Made by a program: the position numbers and the translations under genes. A stretch of DNA of 64,000 nucleotides from assembly GCA_963422645.2 (NCBI GenBank), contig CAXXVO010000008.1:128001-192000 (forward strand). The letters run 5' to 3'. This stretch comes from Alphaproteobacteria bacterium. Lineage in GTDB: Bacteria; Pseudomonadota; Alphaproteobacteria; UBA828. The notes below the pieces were generated by a model that saw nothing but the letters and a program-made list of their open reading frames with translations, ran no database searches and was not told where the DNA came from. Shown in pieces: positions 5,717 to 62,824 of this stretch; the stretch's first letter is position 1, and each line of letters starts with the position of its first letter.

Positions 5717-5922
5717 GGGCGAGGGGTTCCTCCTGTTGCCGCGGCACCGGGTTGGCGCCCTCTTTTACCCGAAAAGGCGCTGCGGTTCACAGGGGCAAAA
5801 TGGCGGCAATGGCCGGAGCGCGCCCATGCCTGCGCCTTGCGGCCGGCGGCCCCCGCCGTCTACCCTTGCCCGAACGACGCAAGACCGAGGACGGGCACCT
5901 GGGAGAGTGGGAGCCCAGCCGC

Positions 5923-27086: not shown

Positions 27087-28054
27087 GTGGCAACGCTTCG
27101 CCTCAACGATCGCCGGGTCGGCACACTCAAGCCCCGAAAGTCCGCTTACGACATTCGCGACCGCGAACTCAAGGGCTTCGGTGTCAGGATACTCCCCTCG
27201 GGCGCCAAGCGGTACTTTGTCCATAGTCAGCATCAGGGCCGACGGATCTGGAAGATCGTCGGCCGGGCCGGGTCCATCGGCACCGATGAAGCCCGCACCC
27301 AGGCCAAGACCCTGTTGGCCGCCATCCGCGAAGGAGCCGACGGACCGGTTGCGGCGCCGCCGGACACCGCGTTCGAGACCGTCGGCGGCGAAGTATTCCG
27401 TCGCTACGCCCGACACTGGAAACCGTCCACGCTCAAGGTCAACCTGATTTACTACCGGAACCAGATACTGCCCTGGTTTGAAGGCCGCCCAATTAGCGGC
27501 ATCACCCACCGCGACGTCCAGCGATGGTTTGCGTCCCTCCACGAGACTCCGGTCGCGGCCGACCGCTCGGCTCCTATCCTCTCGGTTATCATGCGCCAGG
27601 CCGAGGTCTACGGATACCGACCGGAAGGGACCAATCCCTGCGCCGGCATCAAACGCTATCGGCGTCAGGGTTGTGAGCGTTTCCTGTCCGAGCCGGAATT
27701 CCGCCGTTTGGGCGACGTGCTGGCGCGCCACGAGGCCAGCCGCCCGTGGGCCGTGGCAGTGATACGGCTGCTGCTGCTCACCGGATGCCGCAAGGGAGAG
27801 GTCGTCTCCCTGAAATGGTCCTACTACCGCGAAGGTAAGCTGTTCCTGCCCGATAGCAAGACCGGGCCGCGTACGGTCTGGCTCTCGTCCGCCGCACGCG
27901 CGATCCTCGACGGCTTGCCCCGCAGGTCGGTCTGGGTCTTCCCCTCGTCGCGGACGGACAGTTTCATGACCGCGGCAGCGGTCGATCCGGTTTGGTGTCG
28001 GCTGCGGGAGGAAGCGGATCTGTGCGATGTCCGCCTTCACGACTTGCGGCATTC
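27087..28054 (+). pseudogene. Tyrosine recombinase/integrase, C-terminally truncated
   Basis: Arm-binding N-terminus, TGCRKGE and DSKTG present, but similarity to the 42161/43384 paralogs stops at HDLRHS; the LGH and catalytic Tyr region is missing. Confidence 0.8.
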
Positions 28055-28329
28055 TTCTGCGGGCTACCAGAAATATCCAGCGCCAATCAGCGTTCCAAAT
28101 GACAATAACCCACTGATAAAACGAAATTTCTTTCATTCAGTGCAGGCTGTCCGAATTCACTCCCAAGATTTGCGGAAGCAATCCGTAACCGGAGTTGGCT
28201 GTCTCGCCGTCACCTCCTGCCAGCCATGCCGGTAAGCGTTCCGGCGTAACCGTTCGGGTTCCGTAATCGTTCGTTCGGGCCGTGGAGACGCTATCTGCTT
28301 GATGCCTAGCTTTGGCGTGCCCTGGACGC

Positions 28330-29715
28330 ATGAGCGGCCCCGGCCGGCGGCCGGCGGCGCCCATGCCGCTCTACCCCTACCAGCACCGCTGGCTCGCCGA
28401 CCGCAGCCGCTTCAAGATCGGCATGTGGTCGCGCCAGATCGGCAAGACCTTCACCGCAACCCTGGAGATCGTCGACAGCGTCATGGAGGCCCGCGCGCGC
28501 GGCCGCGCCTCGCCCTGGCTGATCCTCTCGCGCGGCGACCGCCAGGCGCGAGAGGCCATGCGCGCCGGCATCCATGCCCACGCCCGCGCCTACGGGCTCG
28601 CGCTGGAGGCCCTGGAGTACGACCTGGCGATCGGCGACCAGGTCTTCCGCGCCCACGAATGGGACGCCGGCTCGGGCAACGTCGTCACCGCGCTGCCCGC
28701 CAACCCCGACACCGCCCGCGGCTACTCCCGCAACGTCTATCTCGACGAGTTCGCCCTGCACCGCGACAGCCGCGCGATCTGGGGCGCGCTCTTCCCCTCG
28801 ATCACCCGCGGCTGGAAGATCAGGATCACCTCCACGCCCAGGGGCAAGGCGGGCAAGTTCTACGAACTCATGACAAGCGACGACGGGCGCTGGTCGCGTC
28901 ATGCCGTCGATATCCACCGCGCGGTCGCGGACGGCTACCCCGCCGATATCGACGAGCTGCGCGCGGGCCTCGCCGACGAGGACCTGTGGCGCCAGGAATA
29001 CGAGTGCCAGTGGCTCGACGAGGCCTCGGCCTGGCTCCCCTACGACCTGATCGACGGCGCCGAAGACGAGGCGGCCGGCGAGCCTGCGGGCCACGCCGGC
29101 GGCCCCGTGTTCATCGGCAACGACATCGCGCGGCGCAACGATCTCTGGGTCGCCTGGGTGATCGAGACGGTCGGCGACGTCGCCTGGACCCGCGAGATCA
29201 GAACCCTCAGGGGCAAGACCTTCAGGGAGCAGGACGATACCCTCGATGCCCTGGTGGAGCGCTACAGACCGGTGCGCATCGCCATGGACCAGACCGGCAT
29301 GGGCGAGAAGCCGGTCGAGGACGCCAAACGCCGCTACGGCGCAACCCGTGTCGAGGGGGTGCTGTTCACCGGACCCCGCAAGCTCGACCTCGCCACCGCG
29401 CTGAAGGAGCGCTTCGAAGACCGCACCATCCGCGTGCCCTCCGGCGACCCGGTGCTCCGCGCCGACCTGCACGCCGTGCGCAAGACCGTCGGACCCACCG
29501 GCAGCCCCCGCCTCGCCGCCGACGGCGAGACCGACGGCCATGCCGACCGCTTCTGGGCCGCAGCGCTGGCCTGCGCGGCTGCCGCCGAAAGCCGCCCGCC
29601 CCCGGCCGGCGCCTGGGCGCAGGGCGATCCCCGCGACGCCTTCACACCCTCCCGCCTTGCCGGGCGCCAGCCCCTCACCATGTTCGGGCGGCCCGGGGAG
29701 GGGATGTGGCGGTGA
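28330..29715 (+). CDS. Phage terminase large subunit (Mu gp28-like)
   Basis: LYPYQ..W, SRQIGKT Walker A, YLDEFA Walker B, STPRG, GNDIAR, DQTGMG, HADRFWA. Confidence 0.9.
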   Translation: MSGPGRRPAAPMPLYPYQHRWLADRSRFKIGMWSRQIGKTFTATLEIVDSVMEARARGRASPWLILSRGDRQAREAMRAGIHAHARAYGLALEALEYDLAIGDQVFRAHEWDAGSGNVVTALPANPDTARGYSRNVYLDEFALHRDSRAIWGALFPSITRGWKIRITSTPRGKAGKFYELMTSDDGRWSRHAVDIHRAVADGYPADIDELRAGLADEDLWRQEYECQWLDEASAWLPYDLIDGAEDEAAGEPAGHAGGPVFIGNDIARRNDLWVAWVIETVGDVAWTREIRTLRGKTFREQDDTLDALVERYRPVRIAMDQTGMGEKPVEDAKRRYGATRVEGVLFTGPRKLDLATALKERFEDRTIRVPSGDPVLRADLHAVRKTVGPTGSPRLAADGETDGHADRFWAAALACAAAAESRPPPAGAWAQGDPRDAFTPSRLAGRQPLTMFGRPGEGMWR

Positions 29716-31136
29716 TCCGCTCGGCCCTCATCCGCATGCTCGGCGGCGCCCCGCCGCACGCTACCGCCCTCCGGGAGGCGGCGGGGAAGGGAATCGACAG
29801 GGACGAGGACCAGTGGCGCCCGCTCACCGGAGACGGACGCCGCGACCTCTCGCCGCTGACCCAGAGCAGGATGAGGAAGCTCGCGACGCACCTCTGGGAA
29901 ACCAACCTGCTCGCCCGCCAGCTCGTCGAGCTCCCCGTCGCCTTCCTCCTCGCCGACGGCGTGCGCGTGCGCGTCCCCGACCCGGACGCCCAGAAATGGC
30001 TCGACGCATGGTGGCGCGATCCCGTCACCGACATGCCGCTCCGCCTCCCCGAGCTCATGCGCGACCTCGCGCTCGCCGGCGAGACCGCATGGCCCGTCTT
30101 CGCAGACCCCGCCTCCGGCCACGTCCGCATGGCGTGGCTCGACCCCGACGCCGTCGAGACCGTGGTCATGGACCCCGACAACGCGTCCCGCCCCATCGGC
30201 ATCGTGACGAAGAAGGACCGCAGGGGCGAAGCCCGGCGCTACCGCACCGCCGTCGGCGGACCCGAAACCGTCCTCGCGCCCGCCGCCCGCGCCATCCGCG
30301 AGACCATGACCTCGGGCGACATCCTCTACTTCCGCGCCAACGCCAGGCCCGGCGCATCCCGCGGACGCTCCGACCTGCTCGCCGCCATCGACTGGCTCGA
30401 CGGATACGAGCGACACCTCTTCGGAGAGATCGACCGCGCCCACTTCCTCCGCGCCTTCGTCTGGGACGTCACCATGACCGGCGCCAGTCAGGAAGAGGTC
30501 GAGGAGCGCGCCGCAAGGGCCACGGCGCCCACGCCCGGAACCGTCCGCGTCCACAACGAGAGCGAGACATGGCAGGCGCTCGCCCCGGACCTCGGCGGCC
30601 GCGACCTCGACGCAACATCCCGCCTCTTCCGCAACCACCTGCTCGGCGGCGCCGGCATGCCCGAGCACTGGTTCGGCGGCGGCGGCGACGTCAACCGCGC
30701 AACCGCCGCAGAGATGGGCGATCCCGCCTTCAAGACCCTCAAGATGCGCCAGAGGCTGTGGACCGAGATCCTGCGCCGGGCCGCAGACTACGCCATCGCC
30801 CGCAGGCTCGACCCCTCCGGCGCATCATGGCCCGATCCCGCAGACCCCGCCCTCGCCGTCTCCGTCGAATGGCCCGAGATGGTGGTCGCCGACGCCTCCC
30901 GACACGCCGCCGCGCTCGCCCAGACCGCAGGCGCCGCGGCGCTGGCCATCGAGCGCGGCCTGCTCTCGGACGCCACCGCGCTCCGCGTCATCGCCGCCGT
31001 CGCCGGGCGCCTCGGCGTCGAGATCGACGCCGACGCCGAACTCGAGGCGGCGCGCGAAGACGCCGCCGGACGGGCCGAAGAAGACGCCTTCCGCGAGCCC
31101 CCGCAGGACGAGGACGACGACGACGGCGAGGCGTAG
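29712..31136 (+). CDS. Putative phage portal protein (not obviously DUF935-type)
   Basis: GTG start overlapping the terL stop; 474 aa between terL and MuF; GRSDL and GMPEHWFG...NRATA portal-like motifs. Confidence 0.75.
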   Translation: MIRSALIRMLGGAPPHATALREAAGKGIDRDEDQWRPLTGDGRRDLSPLTQSRMRKLATHLWETNLLARQLVELPVAFLLADGVRVRVPDPDAQKWLDAWWRDPVTDMPLRLPELMRDLALAGETAWPVFADPASGHVRMAWLDPDAVETVVMDPDNASRPIGIVTKKDRRGEARRYRTAVGGPETVLAPAARAIRETMTSGDILYFRANARPGASRGRSDLLAAIDWLDGYERHLFGEIDRAHFLRAFVWDVTMTGASQEEVEERAARATAPTPGTVRVHNESETWQALAPDLGGRDLDATSRLFRNHLLGGAGMPEHWFGGGGDVNRATAAEMGDPAFKTLKMRQRLWTEILRRAADYAIARRLDPSGASWPDPADPALAVSVEWPEMVVADASRHAAALAQTAGAAALAIERGLLSDATALRVIAAVAGRLGVEIDADAELEAAREDAAGRAEEDAFREPPQDEDDDDGEA

Positions 31137-31139
31137 CAC

Positions 31140-32072
31140 GTGGCTACCGACCGTCAGCGCGAGCGCAGGCTCAAGGGCGAGCGATCCCGCCGCGCCCGCG
31201 CCCTGCCCCGCATCCAGAAGGACACCGCCGCCGAGGTCGGCCGCATCCTCGGGCGCGCCGAGCGCGACATCCGGGCCACCCTCGCCGGCGCGCCCTCCGA
31301 TTACCAGGCATGGGCGCTGCCATCCCTCCAGGCCTCCGTCCGGGACGCCCTCGACAGCCTCGGCGCAGACGCCGGGCAGGCCATGGCCGAGGGCGCAACC
31401 CGCGCCTGGGACGCCGGCATCGATACCGTGAACGCCCCCGTCGACGCCGCCATGTGAGCGCGCGCGGTCCGCGTCGCCGCCATCCTGCCGCAGGTCGATA
31501 CCCGCCAGCTCCTCGCCATGCGATCCTTCCTCACCGCCAAAATGAAGGGCGTCTCCACCGCCCTCGCAAACCGCGTCAACACAGAACTCGGCCTGACCAT
31601 GATCGGAACCCGCAGCGTCGGCGAGACCACCGGCCGCGTCGCCGCCATCCTCAAGAGCGGCGGCAGGTCCCGCGCCCTGACAATCGTGCGGACCGAGCTC
31701 GGCCGCGCATACTCCATGGCCGGACAGCAGCGCATGGAGCAGGCCGCCGGGATCCTGCCGGGGCTGAGGAAGCAATGGCGCCGATCCGGCAAGCTCCGCG
31801 CCCGTATCAATCACGACGCCATCGACGGGCAGATCAGGGAGGTGGACAAGCCCTTCGCCGTCGGCGACGCTTCGCTCATGTATCCCCGCGATCCCGCCGG
31901 GCCGGCGAGCGAAACCATCAACTGCGGATGCCAGTCGCTGCCATGGATGGAAAGCTGGGAGGTCGGGAACCCCGGGCGAAAGCCCTTCTCCGACGAGGAG
32001 ATCGCACGCGACCCGCGGCGCGCCGATCTCGAAGGGAAGGAGGCCGGCGCGGGGACAACGCCGGCATCGTAG
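31140..32072 (+). pseudogene. Phage minor head protein (MuF-like) with one in-frame TGA at 31455-31457
   Basis: ORFs 31140-31457 and 31518-32072 share a frame; IVRTELGRA, KQW, HDAIDGQ, YPRDP...INCGC motifs. Confidence 0.8.
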
Positions 32073-32099
32073 ACCGGGCGAGGCGAAGCACCGCGCCGC

Positions 32100-32342
32100 A
32101 CCGGGATTTGCCGGCGAATCCGCACCCCCGGAACCGCGCCGATTTACAGGCCTTTCAGCACCCCTGAAACGCCCCGAAAATCCCCGCTTCCAGCCAATTC
32201 ACGGCCCTTTCCGGGCCGGATTCGCAAAGACTTTCGTCCGGCCCGCCAGCCCCCGGAAACGCCGCCAACCCCTTGACCGTCCGCCTTCTTCCGCCTTCTT
32301 CCCGGCATCTTCCGGATTCGCAATGACTTTCGTCCCCCCACA
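32100..32342. repeat. Right end of element 1 with two GATTCGCAA(A/T)GACTTTCGTCC sites
   Basis: Sites at ~32219 and ~32315; terminal ACA at 32342. Confidence 0.8.
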
Positions 32343-32347
32343 CCCGG

Positions 32348-34831
32348 ATGGCGTCCTGGTTCGCGGCGGCGCCGCCGGTGCCGCACAGCTCGATCCATGC
32401 AGTCGCGGCGAAACTGTCCCGGATCGGCCAGCATGCGCCCGTGCCGCGGCTTCATCGCGTCGAGGAGCGCAGCGGTGCCCGGCCGGTGCCGGTGCTGACG
32501 CTCTACGGCTGCACGTACAGGCTGCCCCGATTTGTCCATGGCGATTGGCGCGGCACGGGCTACTCCGGCTCGGTCGTCTATCCGTTCGCCCGCCTGGAGA
32601 TCGCCTACGAGGGCGCCGTCACCCGGCTCCGTGCCGGGAGGGGAGACGACATTGCGGCGTCGGGCGACAACGGCTTCGCGGTGATACGGCGCGATCGTGC
32701 GCGCGAAGCGGCGTTCGAGGAGGCGTTACGGGAGGCGGCGAAGCGGTACGGCTACGAGGATCACGAATTGCTGCGCTACGATCACGCTCTGCCGCGCGAG
32801 TTGCGCGAAGCGGATATCGTCTTCCCGCCGGTGGGCGACGAAGACGACGCTGCGGGCGGATCCGGCATCGGTTTTGTCTCGCAGGCGGTTCCGCAGCTCC
32901 GCGCCGAGGGCTGGCGTGTCGAGATCGACGGGACGTGGCCGTTCCGCCTGTACGAGGGACCGGTCGCGTACTCGACTTCGCTCGAACCCCGGGGCTCCGA
33001 CTGGTTCTCGCTTCGCCTCTCGCTCGAGGCGAACGGCCGGAAGCTCGACATCGCGCCGATCGTCGTCCAACTCGTCGAGACCCTGCCGGTGGACGAATGG
33101 GGAGCACTGGAGGAAGGCTTCGACGTCGAGAGACATCTGACCGGCAGGGTTTTTCACAGCCGGTTCGAGGACGGAACGTGGCTTGCGATCAACGCGGCGC
33201 GGTTCGCGCGGTTCGCCGAGGCCTTTCTGGAAGCGCAGGGGCTGCTCGGTTTCCACCGGGCCGAGGCGGGCAGGCTGTTCGAGCTCGCCGAGGCGCTGGA
33301 GGGCTGCGGCGCGCCGTGGACCGGGGGACGGGAGATTCTCGATCTCGGCGCCCGTCTCCGGTCTCTCGCCGAGGCCCCGGAAGTGGCGGCTCCCGCCGCG
33401 TTGCGTGGAGAACTGCGCCCCTACCAGCGCGCGGGCTACGGCTGGCTGAGGGCGCTCTCCGAGAGTTGCTTCGGCGGCGTCCTTGCCGACGACATGGGCC
33501 TCGGCAAGACAGTGCAAACGCTCGCCCTGCTGGCGCACCGGCATCTGGAGGAGAAGGTCGCCCTCCCGAGCCTCCTGGTGGTGCCGACGAGCCTGGTTGG
33601 CAACTGGCGGCGCGAGGCCGCGCGCTTCGTGCCGGGCCTGAAGCTCCTGGTGCTTCACGGGCCCGACCGGCGGCATCGCTTTCCGGACATCCCCGACCAC
33701 CACCTCGTCGTCACGACCTATCCGCTGCTGAACCGGGACCATGAAGCGCTGTTCGGGCACGACTACGATACCGCCGTGCTGGACGAGGCGCAGGCGGTGA
33801 AGAACCCGGCGGCGGCCGTCTCGAAACGCATCCGGGAGATTCGCGCCCGCCAGCGTCTGGCGCTGACCGGGACGCCGCTGGAAAACAACCTCCAGGAGCT
33901 GTGGGCGCTTTACGACTGGCTGGTGCCGGGCCTGCTCGGCAATCGCAAGAGGTTTACGGCGGAGTTCCGCACGCCGATCGAGAAGCACGGCGACCGTGCC
34001 AGGCAGCGGCTGCTTGCGGCCCGGATCAAGCCCTTCCTGATGCGGCGCACCAAGGAAGAGGTCGCCCCCGAGCTGCCGGAAAAGACGGTCATCGACGAGC
34101 TGGTCCCGCTCGAAGGCGCCCAGGCCGCGCTCTACGAGAGCATCAGGACGGCGATGGACAAGCGGATCCGCGAGACGATCGCCGCGCAAGGCCTGACGGC
34201 ATCGCAAATGGCGATTTTCGAGGCGCTGCTCAAGCTGCGCCAGGTCTGCTGCGACCCGGGCCTGGTGAAGCTCGACGCCGCCCGCAAGGTCACCGCGAGC
34301 GCCAAGCGGGCGCGGCTTCTCGCGCTGCTCGAGGATCTGGTCGCCGAGGGGCGCAAGGTGCTGGTCTTCTCCCAGTTCGTGGAGATGCTGAAGCTGATCG
34401 AGCGGGACATCGCCGCGCGCGGCTGGGGCTACGCCATGCTGCACGGTTCGACGAAGGACCGGGACGGCCAGATCGCGGCGTTCCAGACCGGGGACCTGCC
34501 GCTCTTCCTGGTGAGCCTGAAGGCCGGCGGTACGGGCCTCAACCTGACCGCGGCCGACACCGTCATTGTCTACGATCCCTGGTGGAACCCGGCGGTGGAG
34601 CGCCAGGCCATGGACCGGGCGCATCGGATCGGCCAGGACAAGCCGGTATTCGTTCATCGGCTGATTGCCGAGAACACCGTCGAGGCCGCCATCCAGCGCA
34701 TGCAGGCGCGCAAGCAGGGCCTGGCCGACGCGCTGTTCGAAGGCACGGGCCGGGGGCCGCTGGGGCTGACGGGTGAGGATATCGACGCGCTGTTCGGGCC
34801 GGCGCAAACGGTTTCCCCCACCGGCCCGTGA
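32348..34831 (+). CDS. SNF2-family helicase/ATPase, probably 5'-truncated by element 1
   Basis: LRPYQ, LADDMGLGKT, LDEAQ, LTGTPLEN, GGTGLNL, QAMDRAHRIGQ; ORF begins 5 bp after the element end. Confidence 0.88.
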   Translation: MASWFAAAPPVPHSSIHAVAAKLSRIGQHAPVPRLHRVEERSGARPVPVLTLYGCTYRLPRFVHGDWRGTGYSGSVVYPFARLEIAYEGAVTRLRAGRGDDIAASGDNGFAVIRRDRAREAAFEEALREAAKRYGYEDHELLRYDHALPRELREADIVFPPVGDEDDAAGGSGIGFVSQAVPQLRAEGWRVEIDGTWPFRLYEGPVAYSTSLEPRGSDWFSLRLSLEANGRKLDIAPIVVQLVETLPVDEWGALEEGFDVERHLTGRVFHSRFEDGTWLAINAARFARFAEAFLEAQGLLGFHRAEAGRLFELAEALEGCGAPWTGGREILDLGARLRSLAEAPEVAAPAALRGELRPYQRAGYGWLRALSESCFGGVLADDMGLGKTVQTLALLAHRHLEEKVALPSLLVVPTSLVGNWRREAARFVPGLKLLVLHGPDRRHRFPDIPDHHLVVTTYPLLNRDHEALFGHDYDTAVLDEAQAVKNPAAAVSKRIREIRARQRLALTGTPLENNLQELWALYDWLVPGLLGNRKRFTAEFRTPIEKHGDRARQRLLAARIKPFLMRRTKEEVAPELPEKTVIDELVPLEGAQAALYESIRTAMDKRIRETIAAQGLTASQMAIFEALLKLRQVCCDPGLVKLDAARKVTASAKRARLLALLEDLVAEGRKVLVFSQFVEMLKLIERDIAARGWGYAMLHGSTKDRDGQIAAFQTGDLPLFLVSLKAGGTGLNLTAADTVIVYDPWWNPAVERQAMDRAHRIGQDKPVFVHRLIAENTVEAAIQRMQARKQGLADALFEGTGRGPLGLTGEDIDALFGPAQTVSPTGP

Positions 34832-49382: not shown

Positions 49383-49817
49383 TGGGGCGGTTGATGTCAA
49401 GCACCGATCTGCACGATCTTCCGGCCGAGCACGGTCATTCGAACATGAGGCGTAACTACCCAGGTACCCCAATCCTGAGTTGAGGACGGTGATTATGGCG
49501 GCGGCCGCGGTCTGGTTCTGCCACCGCGATTGGTTCTTGACCTCATAGAGTTGCGGGACTATGGACTGCTCTCTCGCGTGACGGGAGCGGTCCATGGGGT
49601 ATTTCGGCTCGAAGGTGTCAATCGGCTTTCAATACTGACCCCCGATCGGCGTGCAAAATTGACCCCCCTGAGTGGCACGGCGGAGGTTGTCCCGGTAGCC
49701 AATAGGGGGGACCCGCGCGGCTTCGTGTGGCGCCCTGCGCTACGCGGAGCGAAGCCGCGTGGGGGGTCCCTGTTGGCCCACCGGGGCAACCGGGCCGCAA
49801 GGGAGGCCGGCGGCGGG

Positions 49818-50546
49818 TCAGGAGCGGTTCTTGAAGCGCCAGCTCTCGTTGCCGGTCTCGATGATCTCGCAATGATGGGTGAGGCGATCGAGCAGCGCTG
49901 TGGTCATCTTGGGGTCGCCGAAGACGGATGGCCATTCGCCGAAGGCGAGGTTTGTGGTGATGACGATCGAGGTGCGCTCGTAGAGCCGGCTCATCAGATG
50001 GAAGAGCAGCTGCCCACCGGCCTGGGCGAAGGGCAGGTAGCCGAGCTCGTCGAGGATGACGAAGTCGCGGCGGACGAGCTGGTCTGCAGTGCGGCCCTGG
50101 CGTCCGGCGCGAAGCTCGGCCTCGAGGAGGTTGACCAGGTCGACGACGTTGTAGCACCGGCCGCGCGCGCCCTTGCGGATGCAGGACCGCGCGATGGCGA
50201 CGGCGAGATGGGTCTTGCCGGTACCGGTGCCGCCGACCAGCACGATGTTGCGTTTGCCCTCGAGGAAGCCGCCGCCGGCGAGCTCCTGGATCAGGGGCTC
50301 GTTGACCGGCGAGGCGGCGAAGTCGAAGTCGGCCAGCTCCTTGACCGTCGGCAGCTTGGCGGAGGCCATCTGGTACTTGATCGAGCGGGCCCTCTTGTCG
50401 GCGATCTCGACCTGCAGCAGCGTACCGATGATCTGTTGCACCGGATGGCGGCGCTTGAGCCCGTCGGCAAGGATGTCGTCGTAAGCGGCGCGCATACCTG
50501 CGAGCTTCAGCTGGGTCATCATCTCCAGCACATCATGACGCTCCAT
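49818..50546 (-). CDS. istB: IS21 helper ATPase IstB
   Basis: [31 protein letters not shown]. Confidence 0.95.
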
Positions 50547-52059
50547 GACCGGCCTCCCTCAGGCTGTCGTAGCGCTGACAGTCGGCTACCGGCTTGTGGC
50601 GAAGCTGCAGGCCCTCGGGCGTCGGGATGATTGCCGGCGGTGCCGGCTGGCGCTGCCGGGCGAGGATGTTGAGCACCACGTCGGCGCTGCAGGCACCGCA
50701 GTCGAGCGTCTCGGCACAGGCCGCCTCAACCGCCTCCAGTCCGTCCTCCAGCACCGCCGCGAGCACCTTGACGAACTGCCGGTCGCCGTCGTCGTGGCCC
50801 GCGAGCCGGGTTCGCAGGCGGCCGAGCGCGTTGGGCAACTGCCAGTCCTTGAAGGGCGCGCCATTGCGTAGCGCGCCGGGCTTCCGCGTCAGGATCGGCA
50901 CGTAATGCCACGGATCGTAGACGAACCGGCCGCGCCCGAAGCTGCGGGGGTGCTCGGCAACGGTCTCGCCGTCCTGGCGGATGACGATCCGATCGGCATA
51001 GGCCCGCACGTCCACCGGCCGGCCGACGGCGCGGGCCGCGACGCTGTACTGGTTGTTGTCGAAGCGCACCAGACAGGTCTTCGAGACCGACACCTCGCTG
51101 GCATGGAAGCCGTCGAAGGGGCCGCGATACGCCATCAGGAAGGGCTGCTCCTCCTCGAACACCTGCCACACCGTCTTGCCCGGGATTGTCGGATGCGGAT
51201 GCTTCTTGGCGTCCTCGATGCACCGATCCATCAGCCACTCGTTGATCTCGGCGTAGGAGCGGCCCCGCGGGATGGGCACGAACAGGCGGCCGCGAAGGTC
51301 ACCCACCTGCTTCTCGACCTGCCCCTTCTCCCAGCCAGCCCCTGGCGTGCACGCCACAGGCTCCACCAGATGGTGCGAGCACAGCTCCTGGAAGCGGCGG
51401 TTGTAGTCCCGCTTCTTGCCCACGAAGATCGTGCTCACCGCCGTCTTCATGTTGTCGTAGATGCCCCGCCGGCAGACCCCGCCGAAGAAGCGGAAGGCAC
51501 GCTCGTGCGCCTCGAAGACCATCTCCTGGCTCTCGCGGGGAAAGATCTGGACCAGATACATCCGGCTGTGGCACAGCCGCATGTGCGCCGCCTTCACCCT
51601 GGTCGTCGCGCCCGACAGACGCGCGTACTCGTGGCTCCAGTCGAACTGGTAGGCCTCGCCGGGATCGAAGATCAGCGGCACATAGGCCTGCGCCGGCGAC
51701 AACAGCCGCCACCGGCGCCGCCAGGCCCTGGCATAGCGGCGAACCGCGTCATAGCCGCCCTTGTAGCCCAGCGACACAAGGTCTTCATGAATCCGCAGAA
51801 GAGACAGCCGATCCTTGCGTGCCTTCTTCTCGTTGGCCTTCAGCTGGCGCTCAAGCTCCTCCACCCACAGCCCAAGCTTCGGCATCGGCTGGATCTTGCG
51901 CTCGTAGCTGTGCGAGGTCGCATCGCCCCGCACCACCTTGCGTATCGTGTTCTTGGAAACCCTCAAATCCCGGGCGAGCTTCTTGATCGGAACGCCCTTC
52001 ACCAGATGATCCCGACGGATCTTCGCGATCGTTTCCACAACCAGCATCTCCCCCACCAC
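50533..52059 (-). CDS. istA: IS21 transposase IstA
   Basis: HTH N-terminus, [20 protein letters not shown]. Confidence 0.95.
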
Positions 52060-52166
52060 CCCGTCCGTCCAAACGACGAGGTGTGTTCATGGACACAAAT
52101 CCAAGGGGGTCAATTTTGGACGCCGATCACCCCCAATAGGGGGTCACTTTTCCACGCTTAACAACA

Positions 52167-56748: not shown

Positions 56749-56759
56749 GGCGGTGTAGC

Positions 56760-56803
56760 CGGCCAGAAGTCTTTGCGAATCGCGGCCAGAAGTCTTTGCG
56801 AAT
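56760..56803 (+). repeat. Two tandem 21-bp putative transposase-binding sites
   Basis: CGGCCAGAAGTCTTTGCGAAT at 56760-56780 and 56783-56803. Confidence 0.9.
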
Positions 56804-56860
56804 GGCCTGGAAAACAGGCTGATTTTCGGGGCTGATTCGGGCTGGAAAAACGGCCTCTGC

Positions 56861-57334
56861 ATCGGCAGGACGCAGAAGGAGATCCTCGGCGTTCTGAACG
56901 CCGCCCTCGGGGAGCGCGGCGAGGAACCCATCGGCGCCGCCTCGCTCAACCGCTACGTCAACCGCCCCGCGATCCGGGCGCTCGCCGAGCGCGCCCGGGC
57001 GGCGTGCGAGATGGGCGCCGCGATCGCGCAGTCGGCCGGGGAGGGCGCCGGCGCCGCGCTCGACCGCGGACTGGTCCAGGCGGGCCAGACGCTCGCCATG
57101 GAGGCGCTGCCCGCCATCCCCTGGGACGAGCTCGAGCCCGAGGACAGGGTGAAGCTGATCGCCAATTTCGGGCTCGCCGTGCGCCGCTTCGCATCGTCGG
57201 CCGCCGTGGCCGACGCCCGCGGGCGAGCGATCCGCGCCGATGCCGCCGAAGCCGCCGTGAAGGAAGCGCGCAGACAGGGGCTGTCGGCCGAGGGCGCGGC
57301 GAAGATCCGCGCGCAAATCGAGGGGGCGGCATGA
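56861..57334 (+). pseudogene. Mu gp27/DUF3486-like (putative small terminase), 5'-truncated
   Basis: Frame upstream of ORF 57011 reads GRTQKEILGVLNAAL..GEEPIGAASLNRY; C-terminal GLSAEGAAKIR; ATGA overlap with terL; no canonical start upstream. Confidence 0.7.
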
Positions 57335-58767
57335 GCCGGGCGCTCCTGCCCTACCAGAGCCGCTGGGTTGCAGACAGGGCACAGCTCAAGATCGTCGAGA
57401 AGTCGCGCCGCATCGGCCTGTCCTGGGCCGAGGCCTACGACGCCGTGATGCACGCCGCCGTGGGTGGGGGCAACGTCACCTACCAGTCCTACGACAGGGA
57501 GATGACCAGAGGCTTCGTCGACGACTGCGCGGACTGGGCGGAGCACCTGGACTTCGAGGCCGGCGCCATCGGCGAGAGCGTCATCGATGCCGGCAATGCC
57601 AGGGCCGTGCAGGTGTTCCGCATCCGGCTCGCATCGGGGAAGACCATCACGTCGATGACCAGCGCGCCGCGCGCGCTCAGGTCCAGGGGACGCCCCGGAG
57701 ACCGGGCGATAATCGACGAGGCCGCCTTCGTCGACGACCTGGGCGAGGTGCTCAAGGCCGCGCTCGCCTTCCTCACGTGGGGCGGGCGGGTCCATGTGAT
57801 CTCGACCCACAACGGCGAGGCCAGCCCCTTCAACCTGCTGCTGCGCGACGTGCGCGAGGGCCGCCAGCCGGGGTCGGTCCACAGCATCCCCTTCCGCCGG
57901 GCCGTCGCAGAAGGGCTGGGCCGGCGCATCTTCGAGGTGACGGGCAAGGAGTACTCGCCCGGGGCGGAGGCCGAATGGGAGGCCGGGATCCGGCGCACCT
58001 ACGGCCACCGGGGCGCCGAGGAGCTCGACTGCGTGCCCAGTGCAGGGACCGGCGCCTGGCTCGCATGGGACCTGATCCGCGAGCGCGAGCACCCGGACGC
58101 GGGCGATCCTGTGCGCCACGCCGGCGGGAGCACCTGGATCGGCGTCGACGTGGCGCGGCGCCGCGATCTCTGGGTCGCCGCCGTCATCGAGAAGGCCGCC
58201 GACGCGCTCTGGGTGCGCGAGATCGTCGCCCGCCAGGGCATCCCGTTCAGCGAGCAGCGCAGGATCGTGCGCGGCCTCGCCGAACGCTACCGCCCGCTCC
58301 GCATCGCGGTCGACCAGACCGGCATGGGCGAGGCCGTGGTCGAGCAGTGGCAGGAGGACCACGGCACGCTGCGGGTCGAGGGCGTGCTCATGACCGGCCC
58401 GCGCCGGCTGGATGCCGCCACCGCGCTGCGCGAGGCCATGGAGGACAAGCGCCTGCGCCTCCCCGCAGACGAGGCATTGCGCCGCGACCTCCACGCCGTG
58501 CGCGCCGAGGCCGGACCCACCGGCTCGCCCCGCCTGGTCGCCGAGCGCTCGGGCACCGACGGCCACGCCGACCGCTTCTGGGCGCTCGCGCTCGCCTGCC
58601 TCTCGGCCTCGCAGGCATCCGGCCCCTTCCAGGCCTGGATCGGCGAGGGCCGCCACGCCGTCCATGACATGCCGGGCTCCCCCTTCGACGGCGATACCGG
58701 CTACCGCATCGACACCGAACTCGGCGTCGTCCATTCCCCCCTCTCCGCCCTGAACGGCTGGCGATAG
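57331..58767 (+). CDS. Phage terminase large subunit (Mu gp28-like)
   Basis: LLPYQ..W, EKSRRIGLSW, IIDEAAF, ISTHNG, DQTGMG, HADRFWA. Confidence 0.92.
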   Translation: MSRALLPYQSRWVADRAQLKIVEKSRRIGLSWAEAYDAVMHAAVGGGNVTYQSYDREMTRGFVDDCADWAEHLDFEAGAIGESVIDAGNARAVQVFRIRLASGKTITSMTSAPRALRSRGRPGDRAIIDEAAFVDDLGEVLKAALAFLTWGGRVHVISTHNGEASPFNLLLRDVREGRQPGSVHSIPFRRAVAEGLGRRIFEVTGKEYSPGAEAEWEAGIRRTYGHRGAEELDCVPSAGTGAWLAWDLIREREHPDAGDPVRHAGGSTWIGVDVARRRDLWVAAVIEKAADALWVREIVARQGIPFSEQRRIVRGLAERYRPLRIAVDQTGMGEAVVEQWQEDHGTLRVEGVLMTGPRRLDAATALREAMEDKRLRLPADEALRRDLHAVRAEAGPTGSPRLVAERSGTDGHADRFWALALACLSASQASGPFQAWIGEGRHAVHDMPGSPFDGDTGYRIDTELGVVHSPLSALNGWR

Positions 58768-58770
58768 CCC

Positions 58771-60258
58771 ATGGCCGCGCCCGCCCCCGCACGTCCCGGG
58801 ACCGCCGAGATCGCAGGCCCGCAGGCCGGCATCGGCGGCATCGGCGAGCTCGTCCTCCCCTGGCTCGACAGCGACCCGGCGCTCGGCGCCGACCCCCGCC
58901 AGTGGCAGGCCGATCCCACCGGGATCGCGGCCGCACAGGCCGCGCTCCGCGACCCCCACGCCCGCGCCGTCCTCGACCAGCGCCTCGACGCCGTCACGGC
59001 CGCCCCCCTCGATATCGAACCCGGCGGCCCGATGCGCCGCGACAGACAGGCCGCCGGGGACCTCGCGGACCAGTTCGGCGGGATCGGGATCGACCGCATC
59101 TCCCGCGAACTCCTCCACGCCGCCTGGTACGGATACAGCATCGCCGAGTGCATCTGGGAGATCGACGGCGCCCGCGTCCGCCTCGCCGATCTCAAGGTCC
59201 GCGACCCCGCCCGCTTCCGCTGGCGCAGGGACGGAACCCCGCTGCTCGTTACCCGCGAGAACCCGCGCGGCGCCGAACTCCCGCCCGCCAAGTTCGTCGT
59301 GCTCGCCCAGCCCCGCAGCCACGGCGGCCAGCCCCACGGCCCCGGCGCCGCACAGTGGTGCCTCTGGCCGGTCTGGCTCAAGCGCCAGGCTGTGCGCATG
59401 TGGGCGGTCGCGCTCGAGAAGTTCGGCAGCCCCACCGCCATCGGCACCGTCCGCCGCGACGCGCCGGCGGCCGAGATCGAGACGATGCTCCAGGCCCAGC
59501 GCGCCATGGCCGGAGGCACCGGCCTCGTCATCCCCGAAGGCCAGGAACTCAAGCTGCTCGACTCGGTCCGCCGCGCCGGCGGCGACTACGGCGCCTTCGT
59601 CGCAGCCCTCGACGGCATGATCGCGGACGCCGTCCTCGGCCAGCGCGCAACCTCCGAGATCGGACCCTGGCGCGGCACCGCCGAAGTCCAGGCCAAGGTG
59701 CTGGAGCGCCTCGTCGCCGCCGACGCCCGACGGCTCTCCGCCGCGCTGCGCAACTCCGTCGCCGCCTGGCTCACCCAATGGAACTTCCCCGGCGCAGACG
59801 TGCCCGAACTCGCCCGCAACACCGCGCCCCCCGAGGATCTCGTGGCCCGCGCCAGGCGCGAGGAGACCGTCGCCCGAACCTCGGGCCTCCGCCCCACCCC
59901 CGCCCATGTCGAGCAGGTCTACGGCGGAGAATGGGAGAAAGCCCCCGCCCCACCCCCGACGCCAGGCGGCGATCCCCGCCCCGCGCGCCTCGCCGAGCCG
60001 GCGCAGCAGGACGACGACGCCATCGACGACGCCGTGGACGCGATCGCCGCAGACTGGCAGCCCCTCGTGGAGCCGGTCGTCGCCCCCGTGCTCGGCGCCG
60101 CAGAGAACGCCGACAGCCTCGGCCGCTTCCGTGCCGCGCTCGACGAGCGCCAGCTCTGGGAGGACATGAACGCAGACCGCATCGCCCGCCGCCTCCGCCG
60201 CACCGCATTCTCCGCCCGCCTCTCCGGCGACGCAGGCCTCGACGAGGGCGAGGGCTGA
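58771..60258 (+). CDS. Mu gp29/DUF935-like portal protein
   Basis: DPH....LDQR, A.WYGYSIAECIW, EKFGSP, VLGQ; position after terL. Confidence 0.88.
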   Translation: MAAPAPARPGTAEIAGPQAGIGGIGELVLPWLDSDPALGADPRQWQADPTGIAAAQAALRDPHARAVLDQRLDAVTAAPLDIEPGGPMRRDRQAAGDLADQFGGIGIDRISRELLHAAWYGYSIAECIWEIDGARVRLADLKVRDPARFRWRRDGTPLLVTRENPRGAELPPAKFVVLAQPRSHGGQPHGPGAAQWCLWPVWLKRQAVRMWAVALEKFGSPTAIGTVRRDAPAAEIETMLQAQRAMAGGTGLVIPEGQELKLLDSVRRAGGDYGAFVAALDGMIADAVLGQRATSEIGPWRGTAEVQAKVLERLVAADARRLSAALRNSVAAWLTQWNFPGADVPELARNTAPPEDLVARARREETVARTSGLRPTPAHVEQVYGGEWEKAPAPPPTPGGDPRPARLAEPAQQDDDAIDDAVDAIAADWQPLVEPVVAPVLGAAENADSLGRFRAALDERQLWEDMNADRIARRLRRTAFSARLSGDAGLDEGEG

Positions 60259-61451
60259 TGCCCGCGCCCGAGATCCTGGACGTACCCCCCGCCGAGGCCG
60301 TCGAGCACTTCCGCGCCAGGGGCTTCCACACAGGCTTCGACTGGCGCGACACCGATGCCGAGCAGCACCTGGTCTCCTTCACCGCCGCCAAGGCCGCGAA
60401 GCTCGACATCCTCCAGGACCTGCGCACCGCCGCCGACAAGGCCATCGCGGACGGCACAACCTTCGAGACCTTCGCCAGGGAGCTGCAGCCCACCCTGGTC
60501 CGCAAGGGATGGTGGGGCAGGCAGCCCATGACCGATCCCCTCACCGGCAAGACGCGCATCGTCCAGCTCGGCTCGGCCCACCGCCTGCGCATTATCTTCG
60601 ATACCAACATCCGCATGGCCTACGCCCGCGGCCGATGGGAGCGCATCGAGCGCCTCAGGGAGGCCATGCCCTGGCTCCGCTACGTCGCCGTCCAGGACGC
60701 CCGCACCAGGCCCGACCACCTCGCATGGCACGGCACCATCCTTCCGGTCGATCACCCCTTCTGGCAGACGCACTACCCGCCCAACGGATGGAAGTGCCGC
60801 TGCATCGTCCAGCAGCTCGGAGACGACGACCTGGAGCGCTACGGATACAAGGTGTCCGAGGGTCCGCCGCCCGGCTCCGGGCGCACCAGGCCCTGGAAGA
60901 ACCGCCGCACAGGCCGCATCCACCAGGTCCCCCTCGGCATCGATCCCGGCTTCCAGCACAACGTCGGCCGCGCCCGGCCCGGGCGCGACAGCGCAAACCG
61001 CCTGATCGAGAAGATCGACGACGCGCCCCCCGACCTCGCACGCGCCGCCATAGGCCAACCCTGGCGCGGGCAGCTCTTCCGCCGCCACCTCGAAGGCCGG
61101 TCCGACGCCGACTGGCCCGCGGCCGTGCTCTCCGCCCCGGTGCGCGGCGCCATCGGCGCACGCTCCCGAACCGTCCGCCTCTCCACAGAAACCGCCGCAA
61201 AGCAGGCCAGGCGACACCCCGATCTCGAACCCGCAGACTACGCCCGCGTCCAGCGCATCCTCGATCAAGGGGAGATGTTCGCCGGCTACGAACGTCAGGC
61301 CGTCGGCTTCCTCGAAGAGAACGGCCGCCTGTGGCGCGCCGTCGTCAAGGCCACCGTGGACGGCTCCGAGACTTATCTCGTGACCCTTCACAAGGCGCAG
61401 CCCCGGGACCGCGACGTGGCGCAGCGGCGTTGGGTCAGGATCGAGCTTTGA
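60258..61451 (+). CDS. Mu gp30 (MuF) head morphogenesis protein with a C-terminal nuclease-like (PBECR-type) extension
   Basis: RLRIIFDTN, DARTRPDH, HYPPNGWKCRC, DPGFQHNVG; about 110-aa tail KQARRHPDL...DY...AVVK...YLVTLH. Confidence 0.85.
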   Translation: MPAPEILDVPPAEAVEHFRARGFHTGFDWRDTDAEQHLVSFTAAKAAKLDILQDLRTAADKAIADGTTFETFARELQPTLVRKGWWGRQPMTDPLTGKTRIVQLGSAHRLRIIFDTNIRMAYARGRWERIERLREAMPWLRYVAVQDARTRPDHLAWHGTILPVDHPFWQTHYPPNGWKCRCIVQQLGDDDLERYGYKVSEGPPPGSGRTRPWKNRRTGRIHQVPLGIDPGFQHNVGRARPGRDSANRLIEKIDDAPPDLARAAIGQPWRGQLFRRHLEGRSDADWPAAVLSAPVRGAIGARSRTVRLSTETAAKQARRHPDLEPADYARVQRILDQGEMFAGYERQAVGFLEENGRLWRAVVKATVDGSETYLVTLHKAQPRDRDVAQRRWVRIEL

Positions 61452-61460
61452 AGGGAAAGA

Positions 61461-61529
61461 TGGCGCCGGGCGGGCCGCAACCCCCGCGCTCGCCCGAAGG
61501 CATGAGAGTCATGCGTGCTTCCAGCGCCA
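61461..61529 (+). ncRNA. Candidate structured RNA downstream of MuF
   Basis: Closing stem TGGCGCCGG/CCAGCGCCA enclosing CGGGCGGGC/GCTCGCCCG and GCATGA/TCATGC hairpins; pairing found by eye only. Confidence 0.35.
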
Positions 61530-61619
61530 CGCCGACCCTACGCGCCGCCGCACGCCACCTCAAGCCGATTCAGCGCCCCGGCGCGGGCCGCCGCCAGCCT
61601 CGCGGGACGGGCGCCTCGC

Positions 61620-61882
61620 CCCGGATTTTCCAGCCGAATCCGATACCCCGAAACCGACCCGATTTGCCGCCGTCGCAAGACCCCTGAAACGCCCCGAAAA
61701 TCGCCGTTTCCAGCCAATTCACGGCCTCTGCACGGCCCGATTCGCAAAGACTTCCGTCCGCACGCCAGCCGCCGCACCGCCACCGTGCCGCCGCGCATCC
61801 CCTTGAGATTCCGCCACCTTCCGCCCGATTCCGCCTGATTCCACCCCTTGACCCGATTCACAACGACTTTCGTCCGTCTACA
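61620..61882. repeat. Right end of element 2
   Basis: GATTCGCAAAGACTTCCGTCC (~61739) and GATTCACAACGACTTTCGTCC (~61855); similar to 32100-32342. Confidence 0.85.
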
Positions 61883-62824
61883 GGCGGCGCGCAGCGCCCG
61901 GATGCGGGCGATCACGGTCTCGGGCGAGCCGTGGACCAGGGTGGTCTCCAGCAGCGTGTCGTAGTCGAACGCCCCGGCGCTCTCCTTCTCCGAGACGTTG
62001 CCGAGGTAGCCTGCGGTCTTTTTGCCGAGGAACGCTTCGAGGTGGCGGATGATCCCTGCCTCGCTCTCCTCCCGCGCCTTGGCGTCGGTCTCGGCCACAT
62101 AGATCCAGCGGGCGATATTGATGGAGCCGAAGGCCGGATTGGCGTTCCAGGGTGCCGGGGCGTGGGTCATGGTCTCGCGATAGAGGGCGATCTGCCCAGC
62201 GAGGGTCTCGAACGAAGGCAGGGTGGAGAGCATCAGGCCGAAGCCGTGGCGCGCCGCGATTTCGATTGAACGGTTCGTGCCGGCGGCCATGTAGAATGGC
62301 GGATGCGGCTGCTGCACGCTCACGGGGTAGATCTCGTAGTCGCCCTCGACCCGGTGCTGGAAGTGGGCGCCCTCATGGCTGACCTTCCGCGTATGGAAGG
62401 CGTCGAGAATCAAGGGGATGGCTTCTTCCTGAATGTCGTGGCGTGCGTCGAAGGGGATCCCGAAGCCCTCGTATTCGTAGGGCCGATAACCGGAACCGAG
62501 GCCCAGGCTGAGCCGCCCGTTGCTCAAGATGTCAACGAAGGCCGCGTTCTCGACGATCCGAACCGGGTTGTGGAGCGGGAGCGTCATCACCGCCGTGCCG
62601 AGCCCGATGCGGCTGGTCTTGGGCGCCAGATAGGCCAGATAGACGAAGGGATCCGGCAGCACGCCGTACTGGTTGGAGAAGTGGTGTTCGGCGATCCAGG
62701 CGGTGTCGTAGCCCAGCCGGTCCGCCTCCACGATCTCGCGGGTCACGCGCGCGTGCACGGCGCGGTGCGGATAAGGTTCAACATCGAGATTGGGCTGAGA
62801 GGTAACCAGAACACCGAATTTCAT
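61883..62824 (-). pseudogene. LLM-class flavin-dependent monooxygenase, 5' part (insertionally inactivated)
   Basis: WIAEHH, GRLSLGLGSGY, QQPHPP, HGSPETV; reconstructed length 359 aa. Confidence 0.9.

Follow-up and report, generated by a model that had tools for sequence, protein, structure and literature searches.

Why should two packaging modules with dissimilar portal proteins stop at the same DNA end? The question arises in a window of 64,000 nucleotides from an Alphaproteobacteria bacterium (GTDB lineage UBA828; GenBank assembly GCA_963422645.2, contig CAXXVO010000008.1, positions 128,001 to 192,000), where two blocks of terL, portal and MuF genes, element 1 (family 1, ending at 32342) and element 2 (family 2, ending at 61882), each run into a similar terminal stretch. 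The window is G000:C9:128001-192000, G000 being the source genome (5.9 Mb, 68.5% G+C); C-numbers stand for contigs, G-numbers for genomes or records, and coordinates without a contig prefix are window positions. A preliminary description, made from the letters of the window alone, took the shared end to mark a recurring element architecture built around the packaging module. The two blocks, we find, are very probably what is left of Mu-like transposable prophages that have decayed, namely their MuF-side arms; in the native form of these phages, no gene stands between MuF and the genome end.

A shared terminus at many loci

Aligned whole (447 columns), 32000-32400 and 61520-61950 show 79% mean column identity with their motifs in register, and BLAST matches 61620-61825 to C9:160101-160295 (window 32101-32295) at 76.3% identity over 207 bp (E 6e-33). 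This alignment, which the preliminary description had called for, agrees with BLAST and with the match first proposed between 32100-32342 and 61620-61882: the motifs quoted at that stage are present, and both stretches close in ...YACA, with ACA termini at 32342 and 61882. Each stretch holds two 21-bp repeats of the form GATTCGCAAAGACTTTCGTCC, 96 bp apart in family 1 (32219 and 32315) and 116 bp apart in family 2 (61739 and 61855). The end had also been said to begin soon after the MuF stop in both elements, and it does, the homology setting in ~25 bp downstream of the stop at 32072 in family 1 and ~160 bp downstream of the stop at 61451 in family 2.

Between the families, the terL proteins are 41% identical, the MuF proteins are 29% identical over 98 aa, and the portals show no similarity by BLASTP (E 1.2), in keeping with the earlier impression that neither portals nor MuFs could be aligned by eye. 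Classification with hidden Markov models, also proposed at that stage, places the family-2 portal in Pfam Portal_Mu and the family-1 portal in the non-Mu type phrog_10963, and finds Phage_Mu_F in both MuFs. The two families have their ends in common yet differ in portal and MuF type, and related transposases would serve both.

The end is repeated in G000 far above chance: a 266-bp version gives 41 matches, 23 of them at 96-100% identity. All 23 family-1 copies end at the base equivalent to 32342, beyond which the flanks are unrelated, and on the inner side the limits differ from copy to copy in a nested series between 28325 and 32156. Family 2 (61882 included) shows the same pattern of a fixed terminus and nested inner limits. 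A motif scan revealed a second, inverted kind of end, with two to three repeats at 23-bp spacing and a terminus ...GGCTACA. The 85 termini of G000 comprise 44 MuF-side ends (sites 96 or 116 bp apart) and 41 tail-side ends (sites 23 bp apart), and every one of them ends in YACA or begins with TGTR. Perfect 5-bp target duplications flank 20 of the 33 same-contig, outward-facing pairs (within 60 kb), whereas shuffling the flanks 2000 times gives 0.41 such pairs on average and never more than 4, and each of these 20 pairs consists of one MuF-side and one tail-side end. The repeat stretch is thereby supported as a transposon end, and its 21-bp repeats, arranged unlike at the two kinds of end, are putative transposase-binding sites. 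Truncation from the 5' side by reverse transcription, or rolling-circle one-ended transposition, is ruled out by the inverted partner ends and the 5-bp duplications.

A further motif, GATTTTCGGGGC (read inward), stands beside GCTGGAA in both kinds of end, at 32172-32183 (~165 bp in from the MuF-side terminus) and at 56819-56830 (~66 bp in from the tail-side one). This motif could be an additional site of protein binding.

The tail-side end is preceded by three outward-pointing genes, namely a lambda-J-like tail gene (FNIII-A_GpJ, Phage-tail_3), a 2OG-Fe(II) oxygenase and orf146 (146 aa); because MuF and these tail-side genes each point outward, the two arms diverge. In the largest pair (C8:85071-107742, 22.7 kb), MuF, portal, terL and Dam are on the minus strand, and a head protease, scaffold, major capsid protein, Gp36 and Phage_tail_S are on the plus strand. 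In the fullest family-1 arm (C6:351607-363749), GemA, HNH, SLT, Gp27 (terS), terL, portal and MuF run on one strand up to the end. The families expected of a Mu-type phage are all found in G000: GemA, Gp27 terS, Portal_Mu, MuF, Gp36 and virion morphogenesis S.

MuF as the native last gene

The survey of other genomes for MuF followed by the end motif, another step the preliminary description had suggested, covered nine loci from 80 other genomes and ten loci from public collections. Homologs of the family-2 MuF occur in 10 of the 80 genomes, 7 of them of the same genus as G000. One member of the genus, G002, holds a prophage of 39,208 bp (C1:174072-213279) between inverted termini, with the duplication GCGAC. 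Its minus strand encodes baseplate J, tape measure, sheath, S, Gp36, capsid and protease, along with an S24 repressor; its plus strand encodes Dam, MuA (rve + Mu-transpos_C), an AAA_22 MuB-like protein, Gam, GemA, HNH, Gp27, terL, portal and MuF. This plus-strand run reaches the terminus with MuF last, followed by two spaced repeats, the terminus ...CCGACA and a host gene. In G006 and G012, of the same genus, MuF likewise leads into the spaced-site end and then into host DNA; on a different contig of G006, a tail-fibre/2OG arm finishes in the same terminal motif.

The same order is found around relatives of the family-1 genes. A Thalassobaculaceae metagenome-assembled genome (G041), whose MuF is 73% identical to that of family 1, has the end motifs directly after MuF, then host genes, in an element whose interior is full of insertion sequences (IS). 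An IMG/VR provirus (G042) spans 38,485 bp between inverted termini (2802-41286, L064-L066), with flanks GGGGTC (5-6 bp). One of its strands carries J, tail genes, protease/capsid, Mor, GemA, Gam, MuB and MuA, and the opposite strand carries cI, lysis genes, terS, terL, portal and MuF, with MuF last before host DNA. The termini of the G002 and G042 prophages begin with TG and end with CA.

MuF as the terminal gene is native to this Mu-like lineage, because the complete G002 and G042 prophages end in terL-portal-MuF. The recurring architecture that the preliminary description had set against random decay holds to this extent, since the order of MuF and then the end recurs in G002, G006, G012, G041 and G042; its view of the packaging module as a special element does not survive, the two full-length prophages natively having MuF last, a finding that it had itself named as incompatible with that view. 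Its premise, that MuF is followed by further head and tail genes as gp30 is in Mu, describes seven of ten distant MuF-relative loci (portal, MuF, protease/capsid on one strand) and does not describe this lineage; two of the other three loci are G041 and G042, and one is cut at MuF.

In the layout that we propose for the lineage, the early, lysis and terS-terL-portal-MuF genes occupy one strand and run out to one genome end, and those for protease, capsid and tail occupy the opposite strand and run out to the far end. This places MuF natively last before a Mu-type end, with TG...CA termini and two putative transposase-binding repeats ~100 bp apart. The canonical Mu order, in which protease and capsid follow portal and MuF on one strand, does not hold in C8:85071-107742, G002 and G042, where the protease-capsid genes are on the opposite strand.

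A single-end match in G011 has no phage gene nearby among those matching the query set. An exact 15-mer of the repeat gave 74 single matches in IMG/VR, all of them chance matches: none combines a second site with a full 21-bp motif of at most two mismatches (two of them reach 2 mismatches but have no second site).

Decay, the missing transposase and competing explanations

MuA-type transposition, with its 5-bp target duplications, brought copies of these prophages into 45 or more sites, and most of the copies afterwards lost their centres, including transposase, capsid and tail genes. The duplication-flanked pairs in G000 are 0.9-22.7 kb long, short of a genome size of ~37-39 kb (39,208 and 38,485 bp in the relatives), and in each of them a tail-side piece (62 bp to 5.8 kb) meets a MuF-side piece (168 bp to 9.5 kb). 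Some junctions are direct deletions; others hold IS21 or an IS of 2.83 kb. The centre, with the transposase region, is kept by none of the G000 copies. With same-genus queries, what tblastn finds in G000 is limited to one MuA fragment of 93 aa (C10:193948-194226) and one MuB fragment of 63 aa (C8:90646-90834); MuA and MuB queries from G042 and from Microcystis phage Mae-JY22 find no match there, and a MuA profile finds only weak IS matches. Pfam PF10124 gives nothing in G000, nor do PF09299 and PF02914, whose silence carries little weight as the controls were equally silent (PF09299 did match the G002 transposase). No intact MuA or MuB is left in G000. Because only these fragments remain, the copies are without a transposase of their own, and they would now be immobile unless a related phage provides one.

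The IS21-family element at 49616-52166 (2551 bp; IstA with rve + Mu-transpos_C_2, and IstB) has ~90 copies at ~100% identity, which points to a very recent burst. A second IS, of ~2.83 kb with a 520-535-aa rve transposase, occurs at G000:C13:70743-73568 and in at least 20 other places at 99.5-100% identity, often at deletion junctions of the Mu-like remnants. The rve protein, considered as the transposase of the elements, was rejected, being part of this discrete IS, which is found also away from Mu-type ends; IS21 IstA/IstB are improbable mobilisers, the termini of IS21 being unlike the 21-bp repeats. Since IS copies are 99.8-100% identical and the prophage arms 94-99%, the IS burst would be younger than the arms. 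IS21 stands at an identical position in the MuF-side end (equivalent to 32144/32145) in C9:570969, C19:136807 and C10:37037, one of them in opposite orientation, and at tail-side arm position 5833 in two elements, with opposite orientations; the repeated position suggests an insertion hot spot or recombination between IS21 copies.

A dedicated mobile packaging-module satellite or transposon, with terL-portal-MuF between Mu-type ends kept by selection (e.g. for hijacking helper capsids), would fit element 2, which consists of exactly the ends and terL-portal-MuF with its frames open, as well as the ratio of nonsynonymous to synonymous divergence (dN/dS) below 1 between copies and the recurrence of the architecture with two unrelated portal types. 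Against such a unit, the breakpoints are nested in both arms, nearly all unique and placed anywhere in the three genes, and the shortest copies are 168-220 bp of end. Only 3 of the 23 family-1 copies have terL, portal and MuF together, the MuF of element 1 has a stop, and the left junction of element 2 cuts a putative terS. Phage satellites, such as phage-inducible chromosomal islands (PICI), cf-PICI and P4-like elements, have their own integrase and replication module in a compact unit; here the integrase at 27087-28235 is outside the repeat boundary at 28325, no integrase, primase or other replication gene was found inside any duplication-delimited element, and sizes and breakpoints vary. 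The gene order is accounted for by the G002 and G042 prophages, and by these complete relatives the satellite explanation is largely refuted; we consider it very improbable.

Less probable again is that the ends belong to a Tn7-like or Tn552-like transposon with phage genes as cargo. Tn7-like elements have TGT...ACA termini, 5-bp duplications and unequal site arrays at their ends, all of which would also fit the termini described here. The genes beside both ends, however, are phage late genes, and the complete relatives carry MuA (rve + Mu-transpos_C), a MuB-like ATPase, Gam, GemA, Mor and full virion sets. No tnsA/B/C operon was seen beside an end, where the neighbours are MuF and the J, 2OG and orf146 genes, in a search that did not include the TnsA and TnsC Pfam families.

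Convergent decay, in which two independent deletions in prophages of Mu order fused MuF to the end, has in its favour only that G000 is full of IS-mediated deletions, and can be given next to no credence: it is refuted by the capsid genes on the opposite strand, beyond what simple deletion yields, and by the G002 prophage, with the same junction found at 44 G000 ends and in G002, G006, G012, G041 and G042, complete 38-39 kb prophages included.

The reading of both blocks as arms of decayed Mu-like prophages has points against it as well. The G002 and G042 prophages are predicted to be complete from their size, target duplication and gene content. G042 differs from G002 in layout, with GemA, MuA and MuB on the tail arm, so the native layout has no single form. 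The family-1 tail arm is of J-like siphovirus type and the G002 tail is contractile; the match to G002 therefore covers family 2 and the ends, not every module. G000 itself is without a complete copy, and the progenitor layout would follow from the rearranged 22.7-kb copy together with the relatives. The dN/dS values between copies (terL 0.12, portal 0.2-0.35, MuF 0.4-0.6) mean that much of the divergence, at 0.12-0.6, took place under selection, and some copies could have been kept functional; most of this divergence would have arisen in live phages before insertion. Finally, 45 of the 85 termini have no target-duplication partner on their own contig. For lone ends on different contigs or in odd orientation, the 5-bp flanks match in 6 of 504 pairs, against 0.93 expected and a shuffle maximum of 7; the contig pairs concerned (C5/C6, C10/C6, C14/C19, C15/C14 and C17/C13) are suggestive of rearrangements among dispersed copies.

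The two elements of the window and their place among Mu-like phages

Element 1 is one arm only, and element 2 retains both ends (Table 1). The preliminary description had the right end of element 1 correctly at 32342; its left limit, by BLAST against the C6 and C13 copies, is 28325 rather than 28330. The C6 and C13 copies extend further left, with terS, and element 1 stops at 28325. Its other end is lost, no tail-side end with a compatible 5-bp flank having been found. Compared with the intact 312-aa copy at C6:362541-363479, its MuF lacks 6 bp and is interrupted by a premature in-frame stop.

Table 1. Coordinates of the two elements and adjoining features in the window.
Feature	Position	Strand	Evidence and remarks
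Tyrosine integrase, outside element 1, belonging to neighbouring repeat	27087..28235	+	Phage_integrase + Arm-DNA-bind_3
Element 1, MuF-side arm of family-1 defective Mu-like prophage (very probable)	28325..32342	+	BLAST limits against C13 and C6 copies, 97.9%
terL, family 1, intact	28330..29715	+	Terminase_6N + Terminase_6C; 99.35% identical to C6 terL, dN/dS 0.12
Portal, family 1, non-Mu type phrog_10963, open frame of 476 aa	29706..31136	+	52% to Mae-JY22 portal, 51% to G042 portal
MuF, family 1, pseudogene	31140..32072	+	Stop at 31455-31457, 6-bp deletion; Phage_Mu_F in C-terminal piece
MuF-side end, family 1	32073..32342	+	Repeats 32219-32239 and 32315-32335; conserved block with GCCCCGAAAATC; terminus ...CCCCACA at 32342
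Target duplication GGCGG, left copy	56749..56753	.	Flank comparison
Tail-side end, variant B	56754..56866	+	Terminus TGTAGCC..., repeats 56761 and 56784 (23 bp apart); 113 bp of tail arm left
Cut terS remnant (putative), then terL, family 2	56867..58767	+	Listed open reading frame 57004-58767; Terminase_6C; 73% to G002 terL
Portal, family 2, Portal_Mu/DUF935	58771..60258	+	PF06074, E 6.6e-78
MuF, family 2, open frame	60255..61451	+	PF04233, 83 bits; 61% to G002 MuF
MuF-side end, family 2	61452..61882	+	Repeats 61739 and 61855 (116 bp apart); terminus ...GTCTACA at 61882
Target duplication GGCGG, right copy	61883..61887	.	Flank comparison
Luciferase-like monooxygenase, host gene interrupted by element 2	61883..62824	-	Remainder left of 56753; Bac_luciferase match stops at junction

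Abutting the left limit of element 1, the 289 bp at 28038-28326 are 98% identical to C5:428281-428569, beside an integrase paralog. The integrase region at 27087-28326 has a lower third-position G+C and several paralogs at 64-80% DNA identity, and is probably the edge of another integrative element; no tRNA gene was found near element 1. On the other side, an open reading frame (ORF) for a SNF2-family helicase (32344-34831) begins right at the terminus of element 1, and its alignment to paralogs on C9 and C3 starts exactly at this junction. Insertion of element 1 may have removed the 5' part of the helicase gene.

Element 2 (56754-61882) keeps both ends, has its interior deleted (junction 56866/56867, as read from the sequence) and lies, with its 5-bp duplication, inside a monooxygenase gene. 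Positions 56870-57000 would be the remnant of terS. Removing element 2 and one GGCGG copy in silico yields an ORF of 359 aa for a luciferase-like monooxygenase, which can be aligned with a paralog as far as its C-terminus. Directly behind the family-2 MuF stop, a stretch of ~70-80 nt (61459-61528) is shared with G002 and G016 at 85-92% identity and has a counterpart, present twice, at ~76-79% in G015, the MuF proteins meanwhile being only ~60% identical; it has no Rfam match and its fold is not unusual.

Background for the comparison is provided by the Mu map, the spacing of the left- and right-end sites and the layout of BcepMu: in Mu, gp30 (MuF) is followed by head and tail genes. With Mu and Mu-like phages (the "Saltoviridae" proposal) the present elements share TG...CA termini, a 5-bp duplication, repeated subterminal sites (spaced at one end, tandem at the other), GemA, Gp27, Portal_Mu, MuF, Gp36 and Phage_tail_S and, in the complete 38-39 kb relatives, MuA, MuB and Gam. 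They differ in that the protease-capsid-tail block is on the opposite strand and in the other arm, that MuF abuts the end and that the G000 copies have no transposase. The B3/D3112-like Pseudomonas phages, Stenotrophomonas phiSHP3 and Chromohalobacter YPCBV-1 share the Mu-type head module and have the standard gene order; YPCBV-1, phiSHP3 and B3-like phages are the nearest phage records to the family-2 portal, at a low 34-38% identity. Microcystis phage Mae-JY22 (PP438414.1) is the nearest phage record for the family-1 MuF (43%) and portal (52%) and carries terS (DUF3486), Gam and transposase-sized genes, but its MuF is followed by capsid and tail genes on the same strand, and its transposase, capsid and tail proteins have no match in G000.

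Laboratory mini-Mu, Ac/Ds and P-element derivatives resemble the G000 copies in keeping their ends and losing the interior, with nested and mostly unique breakpoints, and deleted forms here would depend on a transposase in trans as in mini-Mu and Ac/Ds. The difference is that nothing observed here points to transposition of the deleted forms themselves; deletion in place is indicated because many junctions carry IS21 or another IS. We can offer only as a speculative and rather unlikely proposal that the ~45 loci are a bacterial counterpart of Ac/Ds (mini-Mu copied in trans by a lost helper phage, with deletions arising during replicative transposition) and, separately, that the MuF/protease boundary is a recurrent breakpoint giving viable Mu-like phages with split late genes. 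The split late-gene layout is seen with a contractile tail (G002, G006) and with J-type siphovirus tails (G000, G042). A non-exhaustive check of the literature, which included a text search of PMC5488378, found neither a MuF-terminal layout nor a swarm of Mu-like elements with internal deletions described.

Two unlike packaging modules at the same end are explained in an ordinary way: the end that they share is native to a lineage of Mu-like phages. The gene order of Mu, otherwise well conserved, is broken in this lineage between MuF and the protease gene, and the placement of the packaging genes right beside one genome end bears on the position of pac and the start of headful packaging. The 85 Mu-type termini at ~45 loci in one genome, none with a working transposase, make up an unusually large graveyard, or swarm, of remnants. 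These remnants and the ~90 identical copies of IS21 have jointly remodelled the chromosome, with one host gene or more disrupted.

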